A stretch of DNA of 28,442 bases from Spartobacteria bacterium (GTDB lineage: Bacteria > Verrucomicrobiota > Kiritimatiellia > RZYC01): positions 1 through 28,442 of the forward strand of contig RZZM01000020.1 in NCBI GenBank assembly GCA_009929845.1, given 5' to 3'. Shown here piece after piece: positions 228 through 27,397 of this stretch; position 1 is the stretch's first letter, and the number at the start of each line of letters is the position of its first letter. The translations under genes were made by a program, and so were the position numbers. Under the pieces are notes generated by a model. That model was not told the origin of the DNA, did no database searches, and was given only the letters and a program-made list of their open reading frames with translations.

Positions 228-1463
228 TCAGATTTTGGCGAATGGAAGTGTCATAGATGGTTCCAGCAACACGATATCTGCTTCTGTGAGACCGGCCGCG
301 AGAAATGTTTCCTGCCAGGATTGTGCAATGCGCTTCTGCATCGCCGTTGTCAGGTTTTTGGCCTGTGCGGAAGTGAGATTGAAGACTGGAGCTACTGAGC
401 AAAGGTTGCTCAGTTTTGCCAATCGGCCTTGAGGTCCGATTCCCATGGCCAGAGAAAATTCTGTGCCGACGCCGGATCTCGTCAATGCAGGTACAACATC
501 ATATAAGGGCGACAACGATAACCCATCCTGTTCCATCAGAAAACCATGATTCCGTGGATGATCGTCGGTGTTGCGCACTAGAATATTAAACGCAATTCGC
601 GAAAAGAGTTCGTGAAGATCTGTATCTGGCTGTTTTGAGTGTCGTCGTATGCGGTCGGCTATGGTGCGGTAGGACCAGCGCTCTCTATCTCGTTCATCCC
701 ATTCAGCAAGACTTAATGCACTCATAAAACCAAGGCGACTCCAGCTACCCGAAATACTTGTCCGGTCAAAACGGCGAACGAGAAGCGCGTCCCTGGTTCC
801 AATGGTTAAGAGACGCAGCTCAGGAACAATCAACCCGCATTCTCTGGCTAATGTCATGGTGGCATATTCTACACGAGGGATATTGATTCCGTCATTGCGG
901 GAGGGGAACTTCGCTAACCATAGCTCATCGTCCATTTCCAGCGTGCATTTGGGTCGAGCACCGCCCAGGCTGCTGCCCTGTTCAAGGAGTACACGAATCT
1001 GTTCATCAACAGGGTGCCCCTGTTCAAGTTCTTCGGATGCCTTTAGCAGGTTGTCAATATCCTGAAATTGAGGGGGACTGAATGTTGGTTCTGGATCTTC
1101 AGGGGAAAAGCGAAAGTCAAGGTTCCCAACCCGTGTGGCATTGGCTTCCTGAAGGTAATCAATTTCTGTGATAGCTTCAATTGGACAGTGTAAGCGGGAC
1201 GCTATTACCAGGCGTCCCCAGTAATCCGGTGAGGCATCTCGAAAGGCCCCGTAGAGGCCCCCGTTGGAGGTTGCCGGCAGAAAGGGACCACCCAGTGGTA
1301 GCGCGGCACAATCAACCGCAAGCGCATTATGACGTTCAAGGTATCTGTGTCCGTATTGGAATGAACCGATACCTGACTGGGTGTCATAGTCGAATTTTCC
1401 GGCCGGAACGGCTTCAATAGACTCAGGTAAATAACAGAAAACAATAAGACTTGTAATCGACAT
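228..1463 (-). CDS. hipA: HipA-family serine/threonine kinase toxin (type II toxin-antitoxin)
   Basis: 411-aa ORF. Translation shows HipA hallmarks: phosphate-binding-type loop LGGARPKCTL, catalytic-loop-like NTDDHPRNHGFL (DxHxK/R-N), and LSPLYDVV (Mg-binding Asp region). The start shares one nucleotide with the stop of the upstream HTH gene (TGATG). Confidence 0.85.
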   Translation of the reverse strand: MSITSLIVFCYLPESIEAVPAGKFDYDTQSGIGSFQYGHRYLERHNALAVDCAALPLGGPFLPATSNGGLYGAFRDASPDYWGRLVIASRLHCPIEAITEIDYLQEANATRVGNLDFRFSPEDPEPTFSPPQFQDIDNLLKASEELEQGHPVDEQIRVLLEQGSSLGGARPKCTLEMDDELWLAKFPSRNDGINIPRVEYATMTLARECGLIVPELRLLTIGTRDALLVRRFDRTSISGSWSRLGFMSALSLAEWDERDRERWSYRTIADRIRRHSKQPDTDLHELFSRIAFNILVRNTDDHPRNHGFLMEQDGLSLSPLYDVVPALTRSGVGTEFSLAMGIGPQGRLAKLSNLCSVAPVFNLTSAQAKNLTTAMQKRIAQSWQETFLAAGLTEADIVLLEPSMTLPFAKI

Positions 1464-3379: not shown

Positions 3380-5787
3380 GAGTCCTCCTCCCGCGCAAAT
3401 TTCGGCGCCGCTTTCAGATAGGCGAACGCGCCTATCAGGAGTGCCACGCCAACGATCAGGAAGGCCACAACACGGTAGATGGCTAGCGTTCCCTCCAGGT
3501 CCACCAGGAACACCTTGCCGACTACAATGGCGAAAAGCGCCAGTCCCGCAAGTCGCAGGGGGCGCAGGTTCTTCCCTATGCCGCCTCCGACAAAGCAAAC
3601 GGCAAACAGCGCCCAGAGTACCGAGATCCCTCCCGCCTGGAACGCCGGAAGTTTCCAGTACAGGAAGGCATTCAGTTCCAGCGTGCTGTAGGCGAAGAGC
3701 ATGAACAATCCGCCATAGCCATAGAGAGGCGCCATGGCTTCACCCTCTTCACGGCGTCGGAGCAGATGCCAGGCCAGCAGGAGCATGAAGAGAACGACGC
3801 CGAAATCGAGCAGTCGGGCCATGACATACGCGGCCCCGTATTCGATGAGCAACACGCCATGCGCATTCGGCTGCCACGAATACAGGTCGATGAGGAATAT
3901 CTTGAGCGCCGCGAATCCGAGAAAGAAGCTGGCCGCCATCATGTTCAACCAATCATCCGTATGGATGTAGCGCATCAGGAAATAGGCCCCCATGGCGCAC
4001 CAGACGACCGTGAGCATCGGAAGGCGCCACGCCATGTGGAACTTGAAGAAGGCATTAACCTCCAACTGGAGATATACAAAAAGGATGATGATGCCGGCCC
4101 AGTAGAAGATGGCCCGGAGCAGACTCGGCCGACCGACAACGGCGTCTTCCTCCGTTTTCGCTTCCGTCAGCCTCCGCCGCTTCTCCAGAAAGAACGCGCA
4201 GAATACGGAGGCAATGCTCATCCCGAAGGTCCACAACCGGTCAGACATTTGCGAAAGATAAACCTTGTAGGTTCCCACCCCACCTGATCGTGGATTCGGG
4301 AAGTTGCGGTACATATCAATGGTAGCCAGTTTGAAAAACACGACCCCATAGAGGAAATACGACAGACTGCGCAGGAAAGGACTGCCCAACTTCCCGCTCA
4401 ACCAGAGGAATAAAAACGCCAACAGCGCCCAACTCATGGTGAGCGACTCTTTTTCCAATACCAGCGGCATCGTCAACGAGGTATAGAAGCCGGCCAGCGC
4501 AACCAGCGCGATCAGCAGGGTCCGATCCCCGCGTTTCGCCTTAAGAAACGCGAAGACATGAGCGATGAAGAACACCGCCAGCGCGGTGGTGAGTATGGAC
4601 GGCCACGGACGCCCGTGCGTATAACGGATCACGCCATAGGCCAACAGAGAGAAGATGAACGCATTGGCGACAAGATAAATGATCTCGAGGATCGTGACCT
4701 TCTCATCACGCGCCACGTTGTACCAGTACACGATGGACGTGTGCAGGGCGAACAGGAGCGACATCAGCGTGATGACGACAGGAAAGTCCGTCTTCTCGAA
4801 ACCAAACAGCGAGGCACAAATCATCAGCCACGTCAGCGCGAAGCCCAGATAATTCAAAAGGCGCCACGGTTTGAAATGCGAGAGGGCAAGAATGCCCCCG
4901 CCGAGTATAAAGAGGTAGGAATAGAGCACGAGGAAGTTTGCTTCGCCTGTGCTCAGCAGAATAGGGGTGCTGAAACCGCCAATGATGCCAAGGATCGCGA
5001 TCAACATGGAATCCGTGCGCACGGCCAGCAAACCTGCCGTAATCGTGATAAGGATCATCATCACAAAAGCCGACCAGATGGGGATCAGTTCGAACTGCGG
5101 CCCCGCCGCATACATGCTGTAGTAGAGGATAGCCAGGCCGCCTCCGATGAAGCCTTGCCCCATCAGGTGATACTTCTTCCCCAGCAGGCGATAGCCCCAT
5201 ATCAAGAGCCCCACACCCGCGATAATCGCCATACCGGTCCGTCCCATCGGCCCGATCAGATCACGCTCGATCGACCATTTGAGAAAATAGGCGACACACG
5301 CCACGATGACAATAATGCCGGCGCGAAGCAGCCATGTGCTCGCCACCGCGAACTCGACGCTGACGCCTTCCTTTCGGTACTCATCACCCACCAGAATCCA
5401 CTCCCAAATCCGCCCGAGAATTCCCGCGACCTTCGAAGGTTCCCGCGGCGCTTTTGCTGTGGATATTGCGGGTGCGGACGCGCGGGCCGTTTCCACATGG
5501 GGCTTCGGTTGAGTCGGGAGCGGCGGTGGCGCGACCACAGAAGGTCGCGCCGACTCATCCGACTTCATCGGCGCCGGCTCCTGCCAGACCTCCTTCATCT
5601 CTTCCCGCTCAGCGGCCGGGGATGGTTCTGCCGCTCTCGGGGTTGGCTGTGAAGCTATGATCTTCTTCAACTGATAGTTGAGCGATTTTTGATCGTTCTG
5701 CATCTCGTTGATCCGGCGCGCAATAGAAGAGAGCTGCAGCAGGGTAATGATCGCCAGCACCAACAGTATCGCGAGAAAGAGTTCCAT
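3376..5787 (-). CDS. DUF2339-like large polytopic membrane protein
   Basis: 803 aa. The N-terminus has a hydrophobic helix, a coiled-coil-like segment and a Pro-rich linker (PPPLPTQPKP), followed by more than 15 hydrophobic TM-like segments. GAGG lies 6 nt upstream of the ATG. The stop overlaps the start of the downstream DUF3999-like gene. Confidence 0.55.
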   Translation of the reverse strand: MELFLAILLVLAIITLLQLSSIARRINEMQNDQKSLNYQLKKIIASQPTPRAAEPSPAAEREEMKEVWQEPAPMKSDESARPSVVAPPPLPTQPKPHVETARASAPAISTAKAPREPSKVAGILGRIWEWILVGDEYRKEGVSVEFAVASTWLLRAGIIVIVACVAYFLKWSIERDLIGPMGRTGMAIIAGVGLLIWGYRLLGKKYHLMGQGFIGGGLAILYYSMYAAGPQFELIPIWSAFVMMILITITAGLLAVRTDSMLIAILGIIGGFSTPILLSTGEANFLVLYSYLFILGGGILALSHFKPWRLLNYLGFALTWLMICASLFGFEKTDFPVVITLMSLLFALHTSIVYWYNVARDEKVTILEIIYLVANAFIFSLLAYGVIRYTHGRPWPSILTTALAVFFIAHVFAFLKAKRGDRTLLIALVALAGFYTSLTMPLVLEKESLTMSWALLAFLFLWLSGKLGSPFLRSLSYFLYGVVFFKLATIDMYRNFPNPRSGGVGTYKVYLSQMSDRLWTFGMSIASVFCAFFLEKRRRLTEAKTEEDAVVGRPSLLRAIFYWAGIIILFVYLQLEVNAFFKFHMAWRLPMLTVVWCAMGAYFLMRYIHTDDWLNMMAASFFLGFAALKIFLIDLYSWQPNAHGVLLIEYGAAYVMARLLDFGVVLFMLLLAWHLLRRREEGEAMAPLYGYGGLFMLFAYSTLELNAFLYWKLPAFQAGGISVLWALFAVCFVGGGIGKNLRPLRLAGLALFAIVVGKVFLVDLEGTLAIYRVVAFLIVGVALLIGAFAYLKAAPKFAREEDS

Positions 5788-6092: not shown

Positions 6093-9017
6093 TTGGAAAC
6101 GCCCGTCCGTCAAACGACGGAAAGCATATACACGCTCTGTTTTGAGAATGCCACGACGGGGCTCACTGTGCGCGCATCCGCCAACGTGTACACCAATGGG
6201 CGCAGCCATAACGCCAACTATGACTATAACTTCAGCACCTACGTGCTGGACAGCGATTGGTCGGAAGAGATGTATCGCGACACCAACTTCACCGCTTCAT
6301 GTACGATCATCAGCAACGAGGCGCAACTGGCGCAGTTCGCCTGGCTGGTGAACAGCAGTAATACATTCGCGGGACAAACCATCACCCTGGTTGCGAATCT
6401 GAATGTTTCCGCCCATTACTGGATACCGGTCGGCGCCCCTTTAGCGCGTTTTAACGGGGCCTTCGATGGCGGCAGCCATACCATACACGGAATCGTTATT
6501 GCGGCCCCCGATGCGGATTATCAGGGGCTGTTTGGCTATGCGCATGGCGGAAGCATTCGCGACCTGACATTAGCAAATGTCGATATTGCCGGGCGGGACT
6601 ATGTTGGCGGCATGTGCGGTTTCTCGTGCGCGCGGCTGAACGGCATTTCGTCGGGGGGCTCCATCACAGGAAGAACGTATGTGGGTGGATTGGTCGGCAG
6701 GGCAGAAAGCAATATGGCGAATTGCGCAAACAGCAGTGTCGTTCAAGGGGGCGCCGCCGTGGGCGGCATCGTTGGCGAGATGACGGGGTCTCTGGAGGGC
6801 TGCGCCAATTCCGGGGCTGTCACCAGCGGGTGGAATGGAGGGGGACTTGCATCCGTCATGTTTGGCGGCGTTATTCAAAACTGCACCAACAGCGGAATAG
6901 TGAGCGGGAACTACATCGGCGGCATCGTCGGCGACCTGTCAGCGACCGGCATGGTTCAGCATTGCGTGAACAGCGGAACCCTTCAGGGTAGCGGCGCCTA
7001 CAGTGTGGCCGGGGGCATCGGGGTATCGGTGAAAGGCGATGTTCAGAACTGCGTCAACAGCGGAGCGATCAGCGGAAACAGCGCAGCGGGTATGGTCGCC
7101 TGGCCCGAGGGAACCATACAGGACTGCGTCAATAGCGGCGCAATCAGCGGGGTGCTCGATGAAGCCGAGCACTACAGCCATGCCGGAAGCATCGCGGCAG
7201 ATGTCTGGGATGGAACGATACAAAATTGCGCCAACAGTGGCCCCGTCAGCGGTGGCCATACCAACAGCCTGGTTGGCGGCATCGTGGGGTGGAACGAGCC
7301 CGTCTACGACGATGGGGAGGACTATTACCCTGGCGGAACGATTCAGAACTGCGCCAATAGTGGCGCCGTCAGTGGCTTGGGCCTACTGGGCGGACTGGTG
7401 GGAAAGAACGGCGGCACGATCTCCAACAGCTACTGGAAGCAAACCGGAATGGCGCCTTTTACGCTCGGCGCAACAGGCCAGAATGACGGCATCGTGACAA
7501 ACGCCCAGTCCTTTGCCGCGGCGCCCGGCACCCTGACCGCGCCTGTTGCAGCAGGCCATACAACAACCGACAAGCTCTCGGCGGCCTTGAACGCCTGGAT
7601 GCTCGAAGCTCGCCTCGCAGACACAGCGGCCTTGCGGCGCTGGACCGTCGGATCGGCCAGCGTCTATCCGACACTCATCGACAGCTTCTGGTCGGACGAA
7701 GGCAACTACACGACCAACTGGTACACGGCAGCGGAAACCAACTTCACCATCGGAACGCCGGAAGAACTGGCGGGACTTGCCGTCCTGGTGAATACGGGCA
7801 TCGACGACTTTGGCACAAAGCAGGTTACTCTTTCGGCGGACATTGAGCTGGGCAACCGCGAGTGGACCCCGGTTGGCTCTATGACTGGCGCATTCGGGGG
7901 GGATTTCAACGGCAATGGCAAAAAGGTATCCGGGGTCTATGTGGATACACCGAACGGGGAATTCGTGGGCCTATTTGGTGCGGTGGCTCACGGTCATGTC
8001 TTTAATCTCGCGATTCAGGACATCGATATTTCCGGCGTTTATGCCGGAGGTGTGGCCGGCGTTTCTTTTTTCGCGCAACTCATCAATAACTCGGTCTCCG
8101 GTTATATCGCCGGCGACTTCGCAGGCGGCGGGATCGTCGGCGTCTATGGCGCGGAAGCCACGGGCCTTGGTTTCATAGGCAACTGCTGGAGTGATGCCCT
8201 TGTTTCCGGCGATGTTTGCGCGGGAGGACTCTCGGGCTGCGACGGATGGATGGGCGAAAATACACCGGTAGGGTTCTTCAGCTATTGGAAGAACACGGGC
8301 GCAGCCCCCTACAATCTGCCCGGTGACGGAGGAAGCGGAGTTAACTCGTTCTGTTACTGTTTTGAGGAGCCCCCGGGGTTGCTGGACAGCGCTGGATCGC
8401 CGGCCCTGTCGGAATCTCTGAACAACTTCGTCATGAACGATCTCTACCCGGAACTATCCAGAGAACTGTACGGATGGACGGCAGGGTCCACCTCCAGCTA
8501 TCCCGTAATGATCCCGCTCATCCAAATCGATGGCGCCTACATCCCGCCGCAGACACTGGATGACAGCTTCATGGCCGGCATGGACCTGGCGGGGGTGGAT
8601 GCCACGGTATCTATCTTTACCAACGCGCATCCGGGTACCGATACGGCTTCTTTCGAGGCCCTGATGGAGCAAGCCGAAATGATGGGCGTTACATTTTACG
8701 AGCTGTCGGTGGACAATGCGGTTTTGGATTTTGAACCCACACTGGTCGTCACAGCCACCGACCCGTTCGCCTGGACGCTGGATTTTGCGGTCGGCAACGG
8801 CATCGATGAAACCGCGGTTGCGGCGATGAACCGCCTGGCGGCATCGAGATCCAAAACGTCAAGCGTTTTTCAATTTGATCTGTTGAGTGATGGCGAGACG
8901 CCCCTCCCTACCCTGGCTGAATATCACACCAACGGGACCGCCACGGTCTCCTTCACACCCGTTGCCCCGAACGACGTCATGGTTTTCAAGATGAAACTCA
9001 GCCATGAAAACGAGTAA
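6093..9017 (+). CDS. large GLUG-motif repeat protein (surface protein / adhesin-like), 974 aa
   Basis: Two copies of the module [LA.LVN.....G.T..L.A......W.P.G....F.G.FDG.GH.I.G] are present. Each copy is followed by many repeats of the form (I/V)QNC(A/V)NSG.(V/I)SG and G.VGGIVG, which is typical of GLUG-domain proteins. The first in-frame start is TTG at 6093. No N-terminal signal peptide is visible, so the true start is uncertain. Confidence 0.65.
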   Translation: METPVRQTTESIYTLCFENATTGLTVRASANVYTNGRSHNANYDYNFSTYVLDSDWSEEMYRDTNFTASCTIISNEAQLAQFAWLVNSSNTFAGQTITLVANLNVSAHYWIPVGAPLARFNGAFDGGSHTIHGIVIAAPDADYQGLFGYAHGGSIRDLTLANVDIAGRDYVGGMCGFSCARLNGISSGGSITGRTYVGGLVGRAESNMANCANSSVVQGGAAVGGIVGEMTGSLEGCANSGAVTSGWNGGGLASVMFGGVIQNCTNSGIVSGNYIGGIVGDLSATGMVQHCVNSGTLQGSGAYSVAGGIGVSVKGDVQNCVNSGAISGNSAAGMVAWPEGTIQDCVNSGAISGVLDEAEHYSHAGSIAADVWDGTIQNCANSGPVSGGHTNSLVGGIVGWNEPVYDDGEDYYPGGTIQNCANSGAVSGLGLLGGLVGKNGGTISNSYWKQTGMAPFTLGATGQNDGIVTNAQSFAAAPGTLTAPVAAGHTTTDKLSAALNAWMLEARLADTAALRRWTVGSASVYPTLIDSFWSDEGNYTTNWYTAAETNFTIGTPEELAGLAVLVNTGIDDFGTKQVTLSADIELGNREWTPVGSMTGAFGGDFNGNGKKVSGVYVDTPNGEFVGLFGAVAHGHVFNLAIQDIDISGVYAGGVAGVSFFAQLINNSVSGYIAGDFAGGGIVGVYGAEATGLGFIGNCWSDALVSGDVCAGGLSGCDGWMGENTPVGFFSYWKNTGAAPYNLPGDGGSGVNSFCYCFEEPPGLLDSAGSPALSESLNNFVMNDLYPELSRELYGWTAGSTSSYPVMIPLIQIDGAYIPPQTLDDSFMAGMDLAGVDATVSIFTNAHPGTDTASFEALMEQAEMMGVTFYELSVDNAVLDFEPTLVVTATDPFAWTLDFAVGNGIDETAVAAMNRLAASRSKTSSVFQFDLLSDGETPLPTLAEYHTNGTATVSFTPVAPNDVMVFKMKLSHENE

Positions 9018-9936: not shown

Positions 9937-14442
<4,506 letters not shown>

Positions 14443-14607: not shown

Positions 14608-14712
14608 GTGAAACCTGAAACTGGAAATCTGAGACCTGAAACTGGAGACCTGAGACTTGAAACTGGAAACCTGAGACCTGAAACTTGAGACCTGAAACTT
14701 GAGACCTGAAAC
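14608..14712. repeat. 15 consecutive heptanucleotide tandem repeats, consensus YTGRRAC (CTGAAAC / CTGAGAC / TGGAAAC)
   Basis: Read directly: gtgaaac ctgaaac tggaaat ctgagac ctgaaac tggagac ctgagac ttgaaac tggaaac ctgagac ctgaaac ttgagac ctgaaac ttgagac ctgaaac. A 21-nt periodicity is also apparent. The array lies in the divergent intergenic region between the kinase gene and the CARF gene. Confidence 0.9.
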
Positions 14713-14790
14713 GCGCACCCTGCAACTGTTCTCCCTAACCACCTGCATATCTGCTTGCCTGCCCGCGCGCTATCCTGCTATGGTGTGACC

Positions 14791-15891
14791 ATGAAGCAAT
14801 TTGACACCATACTGCATCTCGCGAACGATACGGCGCTGCCCGATTATTTGATGATTAAACAGTTTGACTGTCCGCGGCACATCATGGCGGTCTCCCACGA
14901 CACCGAACCGGCCTTCAACCTTTTGCAGGGTGTGCTTGGCAAGGAGGGTTGCCACACGGAGAAACTGAATATTCCCGTGGACGATGTGAACACCTGTCGG
15001 CGCCGGCTGGAGAAGGTGGTGACCAGCCTGCCTGAAGGGCGGCACGCCGTCAATCTTACCGGCGGTTCCCGCGTCATGTTTGCCGCCCTTTTTGAGATCG
15101 CCCGGCGCCACGGGCTGCCCGCCGTGCTCCTCGATACCAAAGCAAAGGCCATGCACTGGCTGGATGAGGAGGGCCTCAGCGAACCGCTGCGTCCGGTATT
15201 CCGCGAGGCAACAGGGTTTATCCGCCTGGCCGGCTATGATGTGGACGCCGAGGCGCCAGCCGAACACCTGCGAGTGGCGAACGAACGCCGCGATGCCGCC
15301 ATGGCCTGCTGGCAATATCGCGACCACATCGGCATCTGGAGCAAATCCCTGCGCAACCAAGCCGCGAAACCCGGCCTGCCGTTCCGCGACGGCCCCCGGA
15401 AAATCAAGGGCGTGGAGGTCTCCGCCGTGCTCAAAAAAGAGTCGGACGGCAGCAAGGGCATCCTGCACATCGGCGAGCACGCCTTTACGCTCAAACCCTG
15501 GAAAGACCTGGCTTCATTCATCGCGGGGGGCTGGTACAGGGATGCCGTGCTGGCCAACCTCATGACCCTCAAACACAAGGGCGTCATTCTCGATGTGGCC
15601 CTCGGCGTCAACCCTTCCCCGTCGGCCAAAAACCCGAAGGGACATCTGCCCGCCATGGATATCCTTTATACCGACGGGATCAACCTGACTGTCGTGGATT
15701 GTTACCTGCGATGGAGCGACAACCGGGTCATCCGCCAGGTGGTCCGGCAGGTCCGGCAACTGGCCGGTGATTTTGGCCGCGGCATCCTGGCCGTCGCCTA
15801 TGAAAACGAAAAAGCCCCCCCGAAGAGCGGCCCCACCGTAACCATCCTTTCCGGTCCCGCCGCCGTCTCCCACCCGGAGCACTTTCTCTGA
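14791..15891 (+). CDS. CARF-domain protein with C-terminal DUF1887 / Card1-Can2-like nuclease-fold region (VC1899-like), 366 aa
   Basis: N-terminal Rossmann-like region with the CARF signature VNLTGGSRVMFAALFEIA (h-N-h-T-G-G-S/T-K/R). The C-terminal half has GGWYRDAVLANL (cf. the GxWxExxV helix of PD-(D/E)xK nucleases) followed by ILDVALGV and AMDILYTDG strands. No canonical ExK is visible. Alternative starts are TTG at 14755 and GTG at 14785. No strong SD. The family call rests on motif recognition only. Confidence 0.5.
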   Translation: MKQFDTILHLANDTALPDYLMIKQFDCPRHIMAVSHDTEPAFNLLQGVLGKEGCHTEKLNIPVDDVNTCRRRLEKVVTSLPEGRHAVNLTGGSRVMFAALFEIARRHGLPAVLLDTKAKAMHWLDEEGLSEPLRPVFREATGFIRLAGYDVDAEAPAEHLRVANERRDAAMACWQYRDHIGIWSKSLRNQAAKPGLPFRDGPRKIKGVEVSAVLKKESDGSKGILHIGEHAFTLKPWKDLASFIAGGWYRDAVLANLMTLKHKGVILDVALGVNPSPSAKNPKGHLPAMDILYTDGINLTVVDCYLRWSDNRVIRQVVRQVRQLAGDFGRGILAVAYENEKAPPKSGPTVTILSGPAAVSHPEHFL

Positions 15892-16132
15892 CCCCGGTTT
15901 TCTGCCAAGACCTTTAAGTTCATCCGAAGCGCCTTGCTTTCCAAAATTATTTTCGTTTTTCCCTTGCCGGAAATGCGGGGACGGGGTACGCTGTAGATGG
16001 TAAGTCGGCTGTGGCAGCAGGCAATGACGTCTTGAGCCGAGCAGTCGAAATGGCGATGAGAAGGCTTTAAGAGAGACTTCGTCGCTGGTTATTCCGGCTT
16101 AAAAACCGGAAGCGAAAAGAAAGGAAAGTATC

Positions 16133-18991: not shown

Positions 18992-20974
18992 ATGGTGGCA
19001 GGTATTGTAGGACTGATTGTTATTGGCGTGTTATTTGTATTGGTGATGGGGATGCTGGCGATGCTGGTGAAATGCTATCACAAGGTGCATCAGGGCTCCG
19101 CCATTATTCGAAACGGGTGGGGCGGGCGAAAGGTGTCGTTCGCCGGTATCTTTGTGCTGCCGATCATTCATCATCGCGAATTGATGGATATTTCGGTGAA
19201 GCGTATCGAGATCGACCGCACCGGCTCGGAAGGGCTCGTGTGCCAGGATAATATGCGCGCCGACGTGAAGGTGGCCTTCTTTGTGCGCGTCAATGAGACC
19301 GCCGAAGATGTGCTGCGCGTCGCGCAGTCGTTGGGTTGCGAGCGCGGTTCAAGCCCGCAGGCGCTCATCGAGTTCTTCGATGCGAAGTTTTCTGAAGCAT
19401 TAAAGACGGTCGGCAAAAAATTCGACTTTGTAGAGCTGTATACCAATCGCGATACGTTTAAGGAAGAAATCCTGAAGGTGATCGGCACGGACCTGAACGG
19501 CTACGTGCTGGACGACGCCGCCATCGACTATCTGGAACAGACCAATCTGGACAAGATGGACCCGAATAACATCCTGGACGCGGAAGGCATCAAGAAGATT
19601 GTGGACTTGACGGCCAAACAGGCGGTATTGGCCAACAACATAGCCCGCGAAAAAGAAAAGACCATCAAGAAGCAGGATGTCGAAGCGCGCGAGGCCATTC
19701 TTCAGCTCGAACGTCAGCAGGTGGATGCGGAACAGAAGCAGGGCCGTGAGATTGCGGAAGTGACGGCGCGCGAACAGGCGGAAGCCAAAAAGGTGGAAGC
19801 GGAAGAGCTGTTGAAATCGGAACGGGCGCGTATCGCCACGGCGGAAGAGGTGGCCATTGCGGAAGAAAACAAGGACCGCCAGATCATCGTCGCCAAAAAG
19901 AGCAAAGAACGTACGGAGGCGGTCGAGCAGGAACGTGTCATTAAAGACCGCGATCTGGAGGCCACGGAACGCGAACGGGTGGTCACCCTCGCGCAGATAG
20001 AAAAAGAAAAGGCCGTCGAGGTCGAGAAGAAGAACATGCAGGAAGTGGTGCGTGAACGTGTCGCGGTGGAGCGTACGGTGGTCGAGGAAGAGGAAAAGAT
20101 CAAAGATACCCATGAATTCGCCACCGCCGACCGTTCCAAGCAAGTAGCCATTACCAAGGCCCAGGAGGACGCCGAACAAATACTGATCAAACAGACCAAG
20201 GCGGCTGAAGCACAGCGCGATGCCTCCAAATTTGGCGCCGAGCAGGTGGTCATCGAGGCCCAGGCCCAGCGAGACGCCTCCGAAAGGGAAGCGGAAGCGC
20301 GCAAGATACTGGCGGACGCGAAGGCCGAGGAAGAAGCGGTCATCGGCGTCGGCGAGGCCCGTGCGCTTGAAGCCAAGGCCACCGCTACGGAGCAGTTCGG
20401 CCTGGCGGAAGCCCGGGTCATCGAGAAGAAGGCCAACGCCGACGCCAACGGCATCCGCGACAAGGCCGAGGCGATGAAGCTCTTTGATTCCGTCGGCAAG
20501 GAACACGAAGAATTCAAGCTGCGGCTGAACAAGGACCTCGAGATCGAACTGGCGGCCATTCGCGTGGAACAGGAAATCGCCAAGGAACAATCCGCCATCG
20601 TGGGCGAGGCGCTCAAGAGCGCCCACATCGATATCGTCGGCGGGGAATCAGAATTCTTTGACAAGATTGTCAACGCGGTCACGCGCGGGAAAGTGGTGGA
20701 CCGCATTGTGGACAACAGCCGGGTGCTGACGGACATTACCGACACCTTCTTCAGCGGGGACGCGGCGCAGTTCAAGGAGCAGCTTGCCCGGTTTGTTTCG
20801 CAGTTCGGCATGGGTAGCGAGGATGTCAAAAACCTGACCCTCTCGGCCCTGCTGGCGAAAATGACCGCCCAGACGGACAACGAGCGGACTCAGGCCCTTC
20901 TGGAAAAGGCCGCCCAGGCCGCCGCCAAGCTGGGGCTGTCGGACAAGCTGGCCTCCAGCATCCTGAAGAAATAG
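18992..20974 (+). CDS. flotillin-like SPFH/band-7 family protein (YqiK/FloT-like), 660 aa
   Basis: N-terminal TM helix MVAGIVGLIVIGVLFVLVMGMLAMLV, then an SPFH-type domain, then a long Glu/Ala-rich coiled coil typical of flotillins (EA-repeat region aa about 230-500). Strong GAAGGAGG SD. Confidence 0.85.
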   Translation: MVAGIVGLIVIGVLFVLVMGMLAMLVKCYHKVHQGSAIIRNGWGGRKVSFAGIFVLPIIHHRELMDISVKRIEIDRTGSEGLVCQDNMRADVKVAFFVRVNETAEDVLRVAQSLGCERGSSPQALIEFFDAKFSEALKTVGKKFDFVELYTNRDTFKEEILKVIGTDLNGYVLDDAAIDYLEQTNLDKMDPNNILDAEGIKKIVDLTAKQAVLANNIAREKEKTIKKQDVEAREAILQLERQQVDAEQKQGREIAEVTAREQAEAKKVEAEELLKSERARIATAEEVAIAEENKDRQIIVAKKSKERTEAVEQERVIKDRDLEATERERVVTLAQIEKEKAVEVEKKNMQEVVRERVAVERTVVEEEEKIKDTHEFATADRSKQVAITKAQEDAEQILIKQTKAAEAQRDASKFGAEQVVIEAQAQRDASEREAEARKILADAKAEEEAVIGVGEARALEAKATATEQFGLAEARVIEKKANADANGIRDKAEAMKLFDSVGKEHEEFKLRLNKDLEIELAAIRVEQEIAKEQSAIVGEALKSAHIDIVGGESEFFDKIVNAVTRGKVVDRIVDNSRVLTDITDTFFSGDAAQFKEQLARFVSQFGMGSEDVKNLTLSALLAKMTAQTDNERTQALLEKAAQAAAKLGLSDKLASSILKK

Positions 20975-21068: not shown

Positions 21069-24000
21069 ATGGCTGAGCAATCAAAAAAGAATCCTGAACA
21101 GGCGATTGATACGCCGGAGCATGAAAAAACACAATTGGATGCGGGCGCGTATGAGATTATTCGCAAACGCCTGGCCGGGCATGGCCAGGCGCTGGGGGCG
21201 CGCCTGGAGCAACTCGACGCGGAGCGCAAACGGGTTTTCGGGTCCATTGAGACCAGCCTGGTCAACACGGTAAAAATCCCAACCGAGAACAACTGCATCC
21301 CCCGCGACATGATGGCCCTGGGGGAGGTGGTGCTCTTCGGCTACAATGTGCATATCGGATTGCGCAGCGAGGTCTACCTGAATGATGTTTTCGCGGTGTA
21401 CACCTTCGCGGATAACGCCTTCCAGTCGCGTTCGCTGGACGTGATTGCCGATGAGCGCTTCGAGGCCGATTTCAAGGACCTCTATCGCTACTACAAGAAA
21501 ACGCGGTTCGCGAAATTTGCGCGCATAGGCGCGTACATGTACATGGTATTCCAGATTGGCAGCGACGATCGGGATATTAAGGCGTTCAAGTGGCATGTCG
21601 ATGACGCCGGGACGCTGACCTATGTGGACAACCGGTCTGACCACGAGGTGAAATTTCCGCCGCAACACGAGTTTACCTGGGTGCGCACCCACCGGGATAT
21701 GCAGCGCGACGGGGTGAATCCGCATGTCTCCATCAATGATGTGATTTTCGTGGAAACCGTCGGCGGCGACCTCACCGTCAAGATTGAGGACAACACCGAC
21801 ACCGGCGAAGGCATCTACAGCGAGCCCGTGGATGATCCGGACCAGGTGCTGGATGACGCGGATATTTTTTATGCTGACCTGGGCAGTTTGATTCTGCTGA
21901 AGATACGCCCTTATCAGGAGCAGCGCTACCGCTATCTCGTGTACAGCCGCAAGATGCAGCAGGTCACCCGCATCGATACCATCGAGGATTCCTGCGTGCT
22001 GCTGCCCAACGAACACGGCATTATCTTCTCCAATGGCTACTATCTCCAGAGCGGCGAGCACAAGGAATATGAAAGCGACCTGCTCAACATGCTCTTTGAA
22101 AAAAAGGTGGCCTCGCCCAACGGCGAGGATGTGCTGTATGTCTTTTACAACCAGGCCAGCGGAACCTATGAGCTGCTCTCGTATAATGTGATTCGCCAGC
22201 GCATCGAAACGCCTATGGTCTGCCACGGTTATTGCCTGTTCGACAACGGGAAACTGATCTATTTCAAGGCCGGGGACAATCCCGTCAAGACCCATACGGT
22301 CCAGATTTGGCAGACCCCGTACATCGAGGATGAGCACGAAATCAATGCCGACAAAAATTCGTATCTTTTCAAGATCGGCAACAGCGATATTGTTCGTTGC
22401 ATGGCCGCCTGCCGGGCGGTCATCAACCTGGCGAACCGCGAGGATTCCTACGAAAACCTGTACCTCGACCTGGTCAAGCAGACGACGGAGACGATGGATA
22501 CCTTCTTCTGGCTCGATCATGCGGAGGTTTTCAACCTCAAGGAATGCATGGTGGGCATCCATGACGCCGCCTCGGCGGCGATGGATGAATTCGAGAAGGT
22601 CCTGAACCTGAAAAAGAACAGCCGTGAGCAGGTCGCCGCCGTGGCCGAAAAATGCAAAAAGATATTGGCGGCCGCGCAGACGGCGCACTTCAAGGTGATT
22701 GATGAATTCGTCACCCTGTTGAGCGAAATGCGGACCCTTCGCGGCGAGATCATCGCGTTGCGGGATCTGCGGTACGTGGATGAGGCGCGCCTGGAAGAAC
22801 TTGAAGAGGCGGTCACTTCAGAAACCGAAAAGGTTGCGCGTCACTGCGTGGAATTTTTGCTTAAACCCGAGGCCCTTCATCCCTACCAGGAGCGCGTTGC
22901 GGAGATTCAGCAGCAGGTGGCCAAGGTCGGCAAAGTGGCCGACGCCAAAAAGATTGATGAAGCGGTGGCGTCCGCCGCCGGTGAGCTGGAAATGCTGATT
23001 GATGTGGTCAGCAACCTGAACATCGAAGATGCCACGCAGCGAACGGATATCATCGACGGGATTTCCGCCATTTTTTCCTCGTTGAACCGCGTGCGCAGCG
23101 CCCTCAAGAACCGCATGAAAGAGCTGGCCTCGGTGGAAGGCATTGCCGAATTTGCCTCGCGGGTCAAACTGCTGGACCAGGCGGTTATCAATTACCTGGA
23201 TGTATGCGATAGCGCCGATAAGTGCGAAGAATACCTGGGCAAGGTGATGCTCCAGCTCGAAGAACTGGAGGGGGCCTTTGCCGATTATGATGAATTTGTC
23301 GAACAGTTGGCCGAAAAACGCGAGGAGATCTACAACACGTTTGAAACGCGCCGCCTGAAGCTGGTGGAGGAGCGCAACCGCCGAACGGATACCCTCATGC
23401 GCAGCGCCGAGCGTATGCTCAAGGGCATCCGGACACGCGCGGAAGGCATGGACAGCAACGAGGCCATTCACGCCTATTTTGCGTCGGACCTGATGGTGGA
23501 CAAAGTGCGCAATGTCATCCGGCAGTTGACGGAACTCAATGACACGGTCAAGGCCGGGGATATCCAGGCCCAACTGAAGACGATCCGGGAAAACGCGGTT
23601 CGGCAGTTGAAGGATAAACAGGAACTCTTCCTGGACGGCCAGAATGTCATTGCCTTTGGCCGCCACCATTTCTCCGTCAACACACAGACGCTGGATTTGA
23701 CCACCGTACTGCGCGGCGAGGCGATGTACCTGCATCTGACCGGAACGGATTTCTTTGAAGAGATCACGGAGGACACCTTCCTGGCGACCCGCGACGCGTG
23801 GCGGCAGGATGTGGTTTCGGAAACCGCGGCGGTCTACCGGGGCGAATACCTGGCGTACCTTTTATTCCAGGCCGCGCAGGCGGTCGGCGCCGATCCGTCC
23901 CTGGCGGCGTTGGCGGCGTTTTCGGAGGAGGAGAGCCTGGCCTATGTGCGCGGGTACATGGGCCCACGATTCAGCGAGGGCTACATCAAGGGCGTGACGG

Positions 24001-26339
24001 ACGGGGACGCGGTGAAGATACTGCAGGCGGTCCTGTCCCTGCATACAAGCCTGGGGTTGCTGCGGTTCCGCGCGAAGGCCCGCGCCCTGGCCGTGGTGTT
24101 CTGGCGGCAATGCCCGGAGGACGGGGACAGACAACTGCTGCTGGGCAAGCTCTCGGGCTTCGGCAAACTGTTGCGTGTGTTCCCGGAGGAGCCGCGCCAA
24201 CGCGAGTATATTATCGAGCTGACCGAACGAATATCCGCCTTTGCAAAACGGTACAATACCCTGTTTGATGAGGAGGACGCGCGGGAAGCCGGCGAGTATC
24301 TTTTTGCGGTGCTGACCGGGGACGGACAGCATCCAGTCAGCCGGGAAGCCGCCGATATCCATACGGGCTTCATCGGCATGCTGAAAAAAGCGAATGCCGA
24401 AAAGGAATTTCGGCAGGCCCGCGAAGAGGTGGCCGACGATCCATGTTCAGCCTACTCGGTCATTCGTGACTGGGTGGAGGCCTTTTTGAACCAGGATGCC
24501 GGGGCGTGCGACCCGGGGTATCGCGATGAAGCGGCCGCCCTGTTTTTTTCCGGTGACTATGATGTCAAGCGGGTGATTGATGTGCCCGCCCGGCGCGACC
24601 TGGCGGATATGGCCGGGGAACACCCCCTGATCGCAAAGGGGCTTTACGTGTTCAACTATCATGATTTCATGAGGCGGTTGCATCATCATCAGACCGTCGT
24701 TGTGCCGATGTACGAACAATACCAGGACATGAAGAAGGCCTGGCTCGTGCGTGAACGCGAGGCCATGCGACTGGCTGAATTCATGCCGCGGGTGTTGACC
24801 TCCTTTGTGCGCAACCAGTTGTTGGACCGGGTCTATCTTCCGTTGGTGGGGGACAATCTGGCCAAACAGATTGGCGTGGTCGGCGAGGAAACCCGAACCG
24901 ATCGTATGGGGCTGCTCATGCTGATTTCACCGCCGGGCTACGGCAAAACAACACTGATGGAATATATCGCCAACCGGCTGGGGCTGGTCTTCATGAAAAT
25001 CAACGGTCCGGCCATCGGATGCCATGTGACCTCCCTGGATCCGGAGGAAGCGCCAAATGCCGCCGCGCGCGAGGAATTGAAGAAGCTGAACCTGTCCCTT
25101 GAGATGGGGGATAACGTGATGCTGTATGTCGATGATATCCAGCATTGCAATCCGGAGTTTTTGCAGAAATTTATTTCGTTGTGCGACGCACAGCGGAAGA
25201 TCGAGGGCGTGTACAAGGGCCGTTCCAGCACCTATGACCTGCGCGGGAAGACTGTGGCCGTGGTGATGGCCGGCAACCCTTACACGGAGAGCGGCGAAAT
25301 GTTCAAGGTCCCGGACATGCTGGCCAACCGCGCCGACACCTACAACCTGGGCGATATCATCGGCGACAATGCGGACGCCTTCAAGCTCAGCTACATTGAA
25401 AATGCGCTGACCTCTAATCCGGTGACCAACCGCCTGGCGGCCCGCAGCCGGGATGACATCTACGCCATGATCCGGCTGGCGGAAACCGGGTCCAGGGAAG
25501 GCATCGATTTCGAGGGCAATTATACCGTCGAGGAAACCAACGAGTATGCCTCCGTCATCAAAAAGATATTGCGCATACGCGATGTCGTGCTGACCATGAA
25601 CATGGCCTATATCCATTCCGCCGCTCAGGCGGATGAATTCAGGACGGAGCCGGCGTTCAAACTGCAGGGGTCCTACCGCAACATGAACCGCATGGCCGAA
25701 AAGGTGCAGGCCATCATGAATGACCGTGAACTTGAAACCATGATCTTTTCGCACTATGAAAATGAAGCGCAAACCCTGACCACCGGCGCGGAAGCGAATC
25801 TACTGAAATTCAAAGAGCTGTTGAATATCATGAGCGAGGAGGAAAAGGCCCGCTGGGCGGATATCAAGCGCACCTTTGGACGCAACCAGTTATTCCGCGG
25901 TGTGGAAGGGGACGACAAACTCGGGCAGGTCATTGTGCAGTTGAGCACCTTCCGCGAAGGACTGGAGGATATCGGCAAAGCCCTCTCCGGGTTGGCCGAA
26001 CCGCGCAAGGGCATTACTTCGCTGGATGGGGTGGTCGAAACGCGGCTGGCGCCCGAAACCCTCCAGGCGTTGTCATCCGCATTCGGCGGCCTTAGGGAGT
26101 CTGTCGCCGGGATGAAAGAGGAACTGTCGCGAGCCGCGGAGCAAAAACCGGGCATTGATCCGGAACTCATAAAAATGCTCGAACAACAATTTTCCCGGAT
26201 GCAGGGATGGCTGGACCCCAAGGAAGTCGCCCTGAAAGGCACGATTGAGGAAGTGGAAATACTGCGGCACCGCATGAAAGATGCCGCGGAGAACTATCAC
26301 TATCTGCTTGAGCAGCTTGGACGGGGCGGAGTACGCTAA
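21069..26339 (+). CDS. very large (1756 aa) multidomain protein with a single MoxR/AAA_5-like AAA+ ATPase module and long coiled coils
   Basis: Walker A LISPPGYGKTT (about nt 24930-24953). Walker B VMLYVDDIQH (about nt 25116-25145). Sensor-1 and downstream motif VAVVMAGNPYTESGEMFKVPDMLANRAD resemble the MoxR/AAA_5 pattern NP...G...LPxAxxDRF. The N-terminal roughly 470 aa is beta-rich with unknown fold. aa about 480-1000 is predicted coiled coil. No TM segments. Confidence 0.8.
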   Translation: MAEQSKKNPEQAIDTPEHEKTQLDAGAYEIIRKRLAGHGQALGARLEQLDAERKRVFGSIETSLVNTVKIPTENNCIPRDMMALGEVVLFGYNVHIGLRSEVYLNDVFAVYTFADNAFQSRSLDVIADERFEADFKDLYRYYKKTRFAKFARIGAYMYMVFQIGSDDRDIKAFKWHVDDAGTLTYVDNRSDHEVKFPPQHEFTWVRTHRDMQRDGVNPHVSINDVIFVETVGGDLTVKIEDNTDTGEGIYSEPVDDPDQVLDDADIFYADLGSLILLKIRPYQEQRYRYLVYSRKMQQVTRIDTIEDSCVLLPNEHGIIFSNGYYLQSGEHKEYESDLLNMLFEKKVASPNGEDVLYVFYNQASGTYELLSYNVIRQRIETPMVCHGYCLFDNGKLIYFKAGDNPVKTHTVQIWQTPYIEDEHEINADKNSYLFKIGNSDIVRCMAACRAVINLANREDSYENLYLDLVKQTTETMDTFFWLDHAEVFNLKECMVGIHDAASAAMDEFEKVLNLKKNSREQVAAVAEKCKKILAAAQTAHFKVIDEFVTLLSEMRTLRGEIIALRDLRYVDEARLEELEEAVTSETEKVARHCVEFLLKPEALHPYQERVAEIQQQVAKVGKVADAKKIDEAVASAAGELEMLIDVVSNLNIEDATQRTDIIDGISAIFSSLNRVRSALKNRMKELASVEGIAEFASRVKLLDQAVINYLDVCDSADKCEEYLGKVMLQLEELEGAFADYDEFVEQLAEKREEIYNTFETRRLKLVEERNRRTDTLMRSAERMLKGIRTRAEGMDSNEAIHAYFASDLMVDKVRNVIRQLTELNDTVKAGDIQAQLKTIRENAVRQLKDKQELFLDGQNVIAFGRHHFSVNTQTLDLTTVLRGEAMYLHLTGTDFFEEITEDTFLATRDAWRQDVVSETAAVYRGEYLAYLLFQAAQAVGADPSLAALAAFSEEESLAYVRGYMGPRFSEGYIKGVTDGDAVKILQAVLSLHTSLGLLRFRAKARALAVVFWRQCPEDGDRQLLLGKLSGFGKLLRVFPEEPRQREYIIELTERISAFAKRYNTLFDEEDAREAGEYLFAVLTGDGQHPVSREAADIHTGFIGMLKKANAEKEFRQAREEVADDPCSAYSVIRDWVEAFLNQDAGACDPGYRDEAAALFFSGDYDVKRVIDVPARRDLADMAGEHPLIAKGLYVFNYHDFMRRLHHHQTVVVPMYEQYQDMKKAWLVREREAMRLAEFMPRVLTSFVRNQLLDRVYLPLVGDNLAKQIGVVGEETRTDRMGLLMLISPPGYGKTTLMEYIANRLGLVFMKINGPAIGCHVTSLDPEEAPNAAAREELKKLNLSLEMGDNVMLYVDDIQHCNPEFLQKFISLCDAQRKIEGVYKGRSSTYDLRGKTVAVVMAGNPYTESGEMFKVPDMLANRADTYNLGDIIGDNADAFKLSYIENALTSNPVTNRLAARSRDDIYAMIRLAETGSREGIDFEGNYTVEETNEYASVIKKILRIRDVVLTMNMAYIHSAAQADEFRTEPAFKLQGSYRNMNRMAEKVQAIMNDRELETMIFSHYENEAQTLTTGAEANLLKFKELLNIMSEEEKARWADIKRTFGRNQLFRGVEGDDKLGQVIVQLSTFREGLEDIGKALSGLAEPRKGITSLDGVVETRLAPETLQALSSAFGGLRESVAGMKEELSRAAEQKPGIDPELIKMLEQQFSRMQGWLDPKEVALKGTIEEVEILRHRMKDAAENYHYLLEQLGRGGVR

Positions 26340-26369: not shown

Positions 26370-26425
26370 AAGAGGCTCGTTGTTCAGGCTTCAGCCTGCC
26401 GCGCACGGCGAGCCGCGCATGTTTC
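26370..26425 (+). repeat. repeat family copy A (about 56 nt, direct)
   Basis: aagaggctcgttgttcaggcttcagcctgccgcgcacggcgagccgcgcatgtttc. It contains a palindromic core caggcttcagcctg. Confidence 0.8.
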
Positions 26426-26584
26426 ACGCTGAAAATGCCGAAAAACGTCCGATTTTCAGTAAAAAATGCCGAAATTTTTCCGAAAATGGCCCATTTTTGC
26501 GCTAAAAACAGTAAAAATTGCCGTTTTTGGCCTATTTTTGTTGGATTTTTGTCGTTTTGCACTGTTGCGCGCACGCGTACTCGG

Positions 26585-26627
26585 CATGTGGCTCGCCGCG
26601 CGTGGCAGGCTGAAGCCTGAACAACGA
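26585..26627 (-). repeat. repeat family copy B (inverted, partial)
   Basis: catgtggctcgccgcgcgtggcaggctgaagcctgaacaacga is an approximate reverse complement of copy A, with a 24-nt exact core ggcaggctgaagcctgaacaacga. Confidence 0.7.
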
Positions 26628-26721
26628 ACGGGCAGGCTGACGCCTGGACAAGACATCGTTTCGCCGGGTTGTGACCGTGGTGAAATCCGTTGGTTATCCT
26701 ATCCGTCCGGAGGCTATTCGG

Positions 26722-26777
26722 AAGAGGCTCGTTGTACAGGCTTCAGCCTGCAGCGCACGGCGAGCCGCGCATGTTTC
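26722..26777 (+). repeat. repeat family copy C (about 56 nt, direct, about 95 percent identical to A)
   Basis: aagaggctcgttgtacaggcttcagcctgcagcgcacggcgagccgcgcatgtttc. Like copy A, it is followed by an AT-rich stretch rich in gccgaaaa and ccgaaaat words. Confidence 0.8.
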
Positions 26778-27046
26778 GTGAAAAAAACGCCGGAAAACGG
26801 CCGATTTCTGTTACAAATGCCCAAAAATTTGCCGAAAATTCGGCTATTTTGATCAAAAACGCCAATTTTTTCGTTTTTTCTGTGTTTGAACGGCGATTTT
26901 CTCGTTCTCTGTCCCCGTTCCTTGCGCTCCTGAATTTTTTTGTTTTAGCGCATATTTTCTTCCATACCCCGGGGTTAAAGATGTTAGCCCAGGGTTGACG
27001 CGACAAGCGCCTACCCTGGGTCCCGGATCACCCACGAGTACATCAA

Positions 27047-27338: not shown

Positions 27339-27397
27339 TCAAACCAACAGCCTAACCACCTACCACCTAACCACCTAACCACCTACCACCTAACCAT
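27339..27397. repeat. imperfect tandem array of CCTAACCA / CCTACCA units (about 7 units)
   Basis: aaccaacag cctaacca cctacca cctaacca cctaacca cctacca cctaacca tc. Confidence 0.85.

Follow-up and report, generated by a model that had tools for sequence, protein, structure and literature searches.

A Can2/Card1-family CARF protein with a replaced nuclease active site, probably kept outside CRISPR loci as a catalytically inactive variant

Proteins that carry a CARF domain and an effector domain are usually read as a sensor joined to a toxic enzyme. The closest described systems to the gene considered here are Can2 and Card1, ancillary nucleases of type III CRISPR systems (PDB 7bdv, 8q3y and 6wxw). 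In Can2, cyclic tetra-adenylate (cA4) is contacted by S19, D20, H21, T42, K99, Y118 and S121, of which S19, T42, K99 and Y118 are shared with Can1 (PMC7969007). The active-site residues of TsuCan2 are Glu276 and Asp278 (PMC7969007). In TbrCan2, alanine at Glu304, Asp343 or Lys369 abolishes DNase activity, and the E341A variant is catalytically inactive (PMC10783487). VC1899 of Vibrio cholerae (PDB 1xmx), the founding DUF1887 protein, is an orphan found outside CRISPR loci; it carries arginine where Can2 has Lys99 and is unresponsive to cA4 (PMC7969007). Here we describe a gene of this family from a Spartobacteria bacterium, located at positions 14791..15891 (+ strand) of contig RZZM01000020.1; the whole 28,442-nucleotide contig is referred to below as the window. 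On balance, we lean towards the view that this gene encodes a stand-alone, catalytically inactive descendant of Can2 (CARF plus PD-(D/E)xK, DUF1887) that is maintained by selection and has been exapted. If it has become a non-catalytic sensor, regulator or signal buffer, it would to our knowledge be the first dead-nuclease Can2 kept for a new, CRISPR-independent role; inactivated members of CARF4 may have been noted earlier.

The open reading frame (ORF) extends from the ATG at 14791 to the TGA at 15889-15891 and encodes 366 amino acids. This start codon is supported by the way in which all full-length homologues begin (MKQ/KF/YDTI...), and the predicted protein is an exact match to the deposited NCC50152.1 (366 aa), annotated as 'MAG: DUF1887 family protein [Spartobacteria bacterium]', where MAG denotes a metagenome-assembled genome. 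The DUF1887 label was therefore already in GenBank; what is new is the loss of the active site across a whole clade under purifying selection, and the departure of this clade from CRISPR loci.

PADLOC profiles were needed to place the protein, because the matches in Pfam and NCBIfam were either below threshold or missing. In Pfam, CARF_Card1 reached E=0.028 (14.9 bits, against a cut-off of 24.6), Csa3_N matched the CARF domain weakly (E=0.027), and Card1_endonuc did not match, although the same model matches the active sister proteins P0006 and P0010; NCBIfam gave no match above threshold. The PADLOC profile CARF4--CARF_PDDEXK covers residues 2-340 with E=1.2e-37. An exhaustive HMMER search against 1.84 billion cluster representatives returned 381 relatives, and a family profile built from 97 of these matches Can2 7bdv (5e-53), Card1 (1.6e-33), Can2 8bao (1.3e-32) and VC1899 (1.1e-31). 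Both this profile comparison and the tree described below place the protein closer to CRISPR-linked Can2 than to VC1899.

A structural model was created with AlphaFold2 from the 97-sequence alignment (predicted local distance difference test, pLDDT, 96.2; predicted template-modelling score, pTM, 0.92), and superseded an initial model made from 5 sequences (pLDDT 55). When this model was compared with the PDB using Foldseek, the best match was Can2 7bdv, along the full length (E=3e-19, template-modelling score, TM, 0.73); VC1899 1xmx was matched with E=2.7e-18, the CARF domain of Csa3 was among the matches, and Crn1 (Sso2081) was a weak structural match to the CARF domain only (E ~3e-5). An N-terminal Rossmann-like CARF domain and a C-terminal PD-(D/E)xK fold, the two features that define membership, are thus both present, and the protein belongs to the Can2/Card1/DUF1887 fold family. 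A sequence-only reading of the window had proposed this identity, pointing to this ORF and to the motifs NLTGGSRVM and GGWYRDAVL, all of which are present. It had also named profile and structure comparisons beforehand as its possible refutation; both found the Can2/Card1 fold.

The protein consists of three parts. The CARF domain (residues ~1-135, nt 14791..15195) aligns to residues 12-141 of Can2 and includes the Gly-rich ligand loop N88-LTGGSR94-VM (residues 88-96, nt 15052-15078). It is followed by a middle module of helices and a beta-hairpin (residues ~136-235, nt 15196..15495), delimited by columns invariant in the clade defined below and by the secondary structure of the model. This module matches an extra motif described for Can2 and VC1899, in which it faces the substrate channel (PMC7969007). 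The last part (nt 15496..15888), recognised from column statistics against 91 homologues and from the topology of the model, is a PD-(D/E)xK-fold domain with a disabled active site. In the model it comprises a helix (240-262), three strands (268-273, 289-294 and 299-305), a second helix (311-328) and a final strand (329-335), i.e., an alpha-beta-beta-beta-alpha-beta topology. No helix-turn-helix (HTH) family was matched in Pfam or NCBIfam, and the Can2 nuclease fold takes up the entire C-terminal half, which leaves no Csa3-type (winged) HTH domain. The likeness to Can2 and Card1 thus covers the whole length, in architecture and in fold, and includes the GGxK/R loop, the GxW helix, the Asp of ExD and the TDG motif.

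The catalytic positions were assessed in an alignment of the window protein with 96 homologues. Six sequences form a clade, namely the window protein, P0001-P0004 (50-63% identity) and P0005 (31%); they were compared with the 91 aligned homologues outside the clade, and residues are listed below in the order window protein, P0001, P0002, P0003, P0004, P0005. The helix Glu of the GGWFE motif (position 250) is E in 91/91 homologues outside the clade and R/K/K/R/R/Q within it. In the window protein this helix motif reads GGWYRDAVL (residues 246-254, nt 15526-15552), and the Arg-for-Glu replacement noticed in the sequence-only reading corresponds in the alignment to R250 (nt 15538-15540). The first Glu of ExD (288) is E in 83 of the 91 (91%), and A/S/A/S/H/H in the clade. 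The Asp of ExD (290) is retained throughout, in 91/91 outside the clade and 6/6 within it; in the window protein it is D290 of MDILY (nt 15658-15660). The ExK motif is lost at both positions: Glu303, invariant in all 91, becomes D/K/N/G/N/Q, and Lys305, equally invariant, becomes Y/R/R/R/N/L. The strand in the window protein reads V-V-D303-C-Y305, with D303-C-Y305 (nt 15697-15705) in place of E-x-K, so the earlier impression of a missing ExK and a non-canonical nuclease motif was correct.

In the model, residues 250, 288/290 and 303/305 occupy the catalytic places of the PD-(D/E)xK fold, in helix 240-262 and strands 289-294 and 299-305. Among the 152 proteins returned by the search, N-terminal fragments and one misaligned partial sequence aside, ExK is absent in this clade alone. 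When the TbrCan2 residues are placed on the window protein from the order of the motifs, rather than by direct superposition, three of the four Can2 catalytic positions tested by mutation prove to be lost in the clade: the helix Glu, the ExD Glu and the ExK Lys. The ExK Glu, present in every aligned homologue outside the clade, is gone too. A PD-(D/E)xK-fold domain without canonical active-site residues that is kept as a structural module is known from Can1 (PDB 6sce; PMC7969007). In Can1, however, the same chain also carries an active nuclease domain, whereas in the window protein the sole nuclease-fold domain is dead.

Some features of these sequences would fit a ligand-activated nuclease that acts as a stand-alone defence effector through a non-canonical active site. 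D290 and the Asp of the TDG motif (D295) persist, all clade members share D251 and D268, and the window protein has an Asp at the position of the ExK Glu; in addition, some PD-(D/E)xK enzymes, such as BamHI and BglII, tolerate replacement of the Lys. Nevertheless, the ExK positions differ from one clade member to the next while being invariant in the 91 homologues outside, each of the three missing residues is one that, when mutated singly in TbrCan2, leaves the enzyme inactive or without DNase activity (PMC10783487), and Card1_endonuc matches the active sisters and not the window protein. A re-engineered catalytic site appears unlikely in this clade, since three essential positions are missing and their replacements are not conserved among its members, and we consider a ligand-activated nuclease very improbable. 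Of the two alternatives left by the sequence-only reading, a catalytically dead signalling protein fits far better than a variant nuclease.

To gain insight into the origin of the clade, we examined its position among the homologues. The six sequences come out as monophyletic in a neighbour-joining tree, on a stem that is the fourth longest of 95 internal branches. The sister group consists of P0006, P0007, P0009 and P0010, all with ExK. Two of the sister neighbourhoods (P0006 and P0010) were checked. P0006 closes a cmr2(cas10)-cmr3-RAMP-cmr5-RAMP operon adjoining cas1; P0010 lies near a Cas_NE0113 CARF gene; and Card1_endonuc is present in both. The sister lineage thus comprises intact Can2 genes, one of the two checked being in a cmr locus. 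Because the sister genes are intact, and the two checked lie in type III CRISPR or CARF neighbourhoods and match Card1_endonuc, we conclude that the clade derives from a bona fide CRISPR-associated Can2. Our comparison shows that the active site was lost in a single ancestor of the clade and that the clade left CRISPR loci.

Loss of catalytic residues and erosion of some ligand contacts might simply mean that the gene is a functionless relic, left to decay after a CRISPR locus was lost, and the rarity of the clade (six sequences among ~15 billion proteins) points the same way. The pattern of substitution argues otherwise. For P0001 vs P0002, the sole pair with unsaturated synonymous divergence (dS, 0.70), the ratio of non-synonymous to synonymous substitution (dN/dS) is 0.21 overall. 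The CARF domain has the lowest value (0.14), the middle module stands at 0.16 and the nuclease-like domain at 0.21, and relaxation is confined to the C-terminal tail (0.65). Moreover, every member whose sequence is complete has an intact, full-length ORF, even though identity falls as low as 31%, and dozens of residues are invariant in the clade yet different in the other homologues. These residues cluster in the strands of the CARF domain and in the basic middle module (AAMACWQY, WSKSLR, PFRDGPR, SAVLKK), which is the part best conserved within the clade, and they point to new constraints. Thus, the clade is under purifying selection in all three parts of the protein and is not a pseudogene lineage; we would be surprised if the gene were a functionless relic.

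Further members were sought widely. A word-indexed protein search of 5.8 billion clusters found four close homologues, also when a profile was used, and scans with the clade alignment found no additional members in genome_contigs (185,579 species-representative genomes), metagenome_contigs or viral_contigs. Matches on plasmids were considered as possible members and set aside, as they are ordinary DUF1887 proteins at 23-26% identity. A tblastn search of a phage collection found no copy of the clade, and a viral anti-CRISPR origin was likewise discarded, with no viral or phage copies found.

We next turn to the ligand pocket. The equivalents of the seven Can2 residues that contact cA4 are N12, D13, T14, S35, R94, L113 and T116 in the window protein, of which S35 (for T42) and R94 (for K99) are conservative changes. 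Position 12, equivalent to S19, is G in 92% of the homologues outside the clade and variable within it (N/C/P/D/C); position 14 is Q in 91% outside, and T or H in the clade; position 93 is T in 99% outside, and S/N/T in the clade. Position 94, equivalent to Lys99, is K in 99% outside the clade and R in 6/6 within it. Position 113, equivalent to Tyr118, is Y in 100% outside and L/Y/Y/Y/L/F in the clade, and the equivalent of S121 reads T/P/T/P/V/N. The proposal of a cyclic-oligoadenylate (cOA) sensor is weakened by this pattern: the Gly-rich loop is preserved, and the cA4 signature, judged from the residues at these positions, is partly eroded, with several contact positions changed or variable in the clade. 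The relation to VC1899 is in this respect the converse of a close parallel, as VC1899 keeps the nuclease residues and has lost the cA4-binding residues (PMC7969007), whereas in the clade it is the nuclease residues that are gone and the CARF pocket that partly survives.

The genomic context of the gene is that of an orphan. The sequence-only reading had found no cas gene, cyclase or CRISPR array, and within the 28-kb contig this is borne out by PADLOC, Pfam, Rfam and a repeat search: no cas gene or cyclase was detected in the window (PADLOC profiles for ten other large ORFs; the hybrid kinase and the second and third pspA genes by Pfam only), no CRISPR-like repeat array is present in the contig, and the Rfam scan was empty. 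The four other clade loci with readable neighbourhoods are also free of cas genes. They contain, respectively, Tex, Fic and MCP genes; genes for an extracytoplasmic function (ECF) sigma factor, an anti-sigma factor and a histidine kinase; ferredoxin and aldehyde:ferredoxin oxidoreductase genes; and ECF sigma and DUF4139 genes. A conserved partner was looked for and none emerged, there being no gene common to the five readable neighbourhoods. In all five contexts, then, the clade genes lie outside CRISPR-cas loci. Since the architecture and fold are those of the family, while the catalytic motif is absent and the 28-kb contig and four other clade loci show no type III CRISPR association, the protein is filed as an inactivated variant of the Can2/Card1/DUF1887 family and not as a Can2 nuclease.

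As a separate observation, ECF sigma genes lie near two of the five clade CARF genes (L002 1097-3015, with a zf-HC2 anti-sigma gene; L011 6371-6946 and 11983-12603). ECF sigma factors are abundant in these phyla and the proximity may be coincidence; it recalls the CalpL-CalpT-CalpS pathway, which leads from cOA to a sigma factor.

These contexts also bear on the idea that the protein is a cOA sponge or buffer, i.e., a dead Can2 that binds cA4 or another cOA from a type III system encoded elsewhere and so damps or times the toxic effectors. The Gly-rich loop and the hydroxyl of the T42 equivalent are kept, K99 is replaced conservatively by R in 6/6, constraint is strongest in the CARF domain (dN/dS 0.14), the nearest active relatives are embedded in CRISPR loci, and the nuclease output is gone while binding remains. 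On the other hand, there is no cas gene in any of the five neighbourhoods, and a sponge could do without the nuclease-like domain and the middle module, both of which are under purifying selection. Both the window protein and P0004 have Leu in place of the Tyr that contacts cA4 in Can2 and is conserved in 100% of the homologues outside the clade; VC1899, with the same Arg for Lys, is unresponsive to cA4 (PMC7969007); and the lack of phage or viral copies leaves no evident anti-CRISPR. A sponge is in our view unlikely, although less so than the nuclease or the relic.

We therefore return to the inactive, selectively maintained Can2 descendant. How such a protein would work can be proposed only tentatively, and we hold the specific mechanism to be rather less probable than the general reading. 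The protein would dimerise via its CARF domains, as its relatives do, and would bind a nucleotide-type ligand, possibly no longer cA4, in a remodelled pocket built around the GG-S/T/N-R loop. Its output would be non-enzymatic, namely ligand-dependent binding of nucleic acid without cleavage. The binding surface would combine the basic, highly conserved middle module with the former active-site cleft, in which neutral or basic residues have replaced acidic ones and which would hold no metal. Its overall role would be that of a sensor or regulator and not of an effector nuclease. Csa3, a transcription factor made of CARF and HTH domains, offers a parallel, being a non-enzymatic CARF protein in which cOA binding leads to nucleic-acid binding. 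Unlike Csa3, the window protein has no HTH; its output domain is a dead restriction-endonuclease fold, and its binding to DNA is presumed. More broadly, a Can2 lineage may have been exapted outside CRISPR, in Verrucomicrobia-like bacteria, into a non-catalytic, ligand-gated, nucleic-acid-binding sensor or regulator, or into a cOA buffer; this is possible but, we think, doubtful. Weaker still is the special case that, in this genome alone, read-through transcription wires the protein to the PspA/AAA+ membrane module encoded downstream.

Several points weigh against this interpretation. Four Asp residues (D251, D268, D290 and D295) are invariant in the clade, and from the residues alone a rebuilt, non-canonical metal site is conceivable. 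The variation at the equivalents of S19, Y118 and S121 may mean that ligand binding has been lost and that the CARF domain is retained only for dimerisation. The clade is known from six sequences only, and the alignment used for the AlphaFold2 model is dominated by active Can2 proteins, so that the model is blind to structural change specific to the clade. The spacer between the CARF gene and pspA has no terminator-like hairpin, and read-through co-transcription of the two in this one genome is possible. Finally, the mechanistic part is one that we only infer.

If the interpretation is correct, it would have several consequences. The enzyme half of a CARF effector is here disabled and the protein is nevertheless still under selection. 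Were a nucleotide ligand still bound, parts of an immune signalling system would have been recycled into housekeeping regulation, or turned to the buffering of cOA signals. The protein would also offer a natural, catalytically dead scaffold for studies of CARF-to-nuclease allostery. It is, in addition, a warning that not every match to DUF1887 or to CARF-PD-DExK is a defence nuclease.

The CARF gene is followed on the same strand, after a spacer of 241 bp (15892-16132), by a cluster in which Pfam confirms three PspA_IM30 genes, a gene for a YqiJ_N (NfeD-like) membrane protein, and a gene for a 1756-aa protein with DUF3686, DUF7902 and AAA domains. The sequence-only reading had described the three pspA genes and the AAA+ gene about 240 bp downstream, which is accurate, and had suggested that the CARF protein might feed a second-messenger signal into this membrane-remodelling module. 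The arrangement is indeed suggestive, with a shared strand, a spacer of this length and no terminator-like site between the genes. A CARF protein that acts on membranes also has a precedent, reportedly, in Cam1. Comparison with other loci, however, does not uphold the link. The pspA gene is absent from the four other readable clade loci (0/4), and the CARF gene is absent from the three related PspA clusters examined (L006, L007 and L009/L010); the co-occurrence check that had been proposed thus gave no association in the loci compared.

The closest PspA cluster, L006, is particularly informative. Its PspA1 is 91% identical in amino acids (DNA ~76%), and it comes from a metagenome common to P0001 and P0003. 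In a blastn comparison, homology between the window and L006 starts at 15950, 59 nt past the CARF stop codon. Upstream of this point L006 has ExbB/ExbD genes, repeat arrays and a small ORF, and tblastn detected no CARF remnant upstream of its PspA cluster. The upstream boundary of the cluster in the window is a conserved leader and promoter region (15950..16132, + strand), homologous to L006 9816-10000. Over the last ~100 nt of this leader (~180 nt) the two sequences are >90% identical, above the ~76% of the pspA coding sequence, and it holds a promoter-like TTGCCG-17-TACGCT. A conserved leader with a promoter-like site implies that pspA has its own control region. Taken together, these data indicate that the CARF gene is not part of the PspA cluster and that the two are adjacent by chance. 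We regard a second-messenger input to the PspA x3 / NfeD-like / AAA+ cluster as highly improbable, and the tempting CARF-PspA 'system' has been removed as unsupported.

The leader itself may be a conserved cis-regulatory element of the PspA cluster. Its predicted RNA fold is not significant (z=-0.95), and no sigma54 promoter was found upstream of pspA or of the CARF gene. When genome_contigs was scanned with PspA2, only the distant loci L004 and L005 (27-28%) were recovered. The 1756-aa protein that ends the cluster (21069-26339, + strand) combines an AAA+ module at its C-terminus with DUF7902 and with DUF3686 ('ATPase involved in DNA repair', E=1.6e-186); a full-text literature search returned no papers on DUF3686. 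At its position, L009/L010 has a 1368-aa protein without Pfam matches. The 660-aa ORF within the cluster (18992-20974, + strand) had been labelled a flotillin. This label is not sustained: Pfam, NCBIfam and PDB sequences gave neither Band_7 nor Flot, and these sources and PADLOC gave no other significant match. The ORF may encode a highly divergent SPFH protein or something else; L007 has a Band_7+Flot protein after pspA, at a comparable position.

Upstream of the CARF gene, Tandem Repeats Finder (TRF) and a second repeat finder identified 15 imperfect heptamers of the form (T/G)GA(A/G)AC(C/T) at 14609..14713, with a higher-order period of 21 or 42 nt. They sit in the 348-bp divergent intergenic region between a hybrid histidine kinase gene (start 14442, - strand) and the CARF gene. 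The 15-unit array of the sequence-only reading is therefore real but not specific: similar imperfect arrays, with units of 7-14 nt, occur at 27351-27396 of the window, in five places in L006 (with arrays at 4655-4730, 8671-8900 and 10714-11027) and in L011 (19854-19894), scattered through intergenic DNA. In L001, L003 and L011, the DNA upstream of the clade gene showed no such array; the contig of L002 does not extend that far. A role as an operator of the CARF gene was considered and rejected, because such arrays are widespread in the contigs and missing upstream of the other clade genes. We read the array as an intergenic repeat type found across the lineage and not as a feature of the CARF gene.

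In L006, two pairs of GACTAAGTGT-type-unit arrays are in inverted orientation. One of these pairs makes up a ~400-bp insertion between pspA1 and pspA2 that the window lacks, pointing to a small repeat element that is mobile or prone to recombination. A 138-nt direct repeat with 78% identity (26370-26507 and 26722-26859) overlaps both ends of a 128-aa ORF (26466-26852) that has no family match. The sole other defence- or stress-related match in the contig is a HipA_C-domain kinase gene, toxin-antitoxin-like, at 228-1463 (- strand; HipA_C E=1e-48), which also matches the PADLOC candidate family PDC-M03A weakly. Lastly, a 974-aa ORF (6093-9017, + strand) has a weak GLUG motif and coding repeats at 6874-7375, with 34-nt cores spaced 75-123 nt apart, and probably encodes a repetitive surface or adhesin-like protein.

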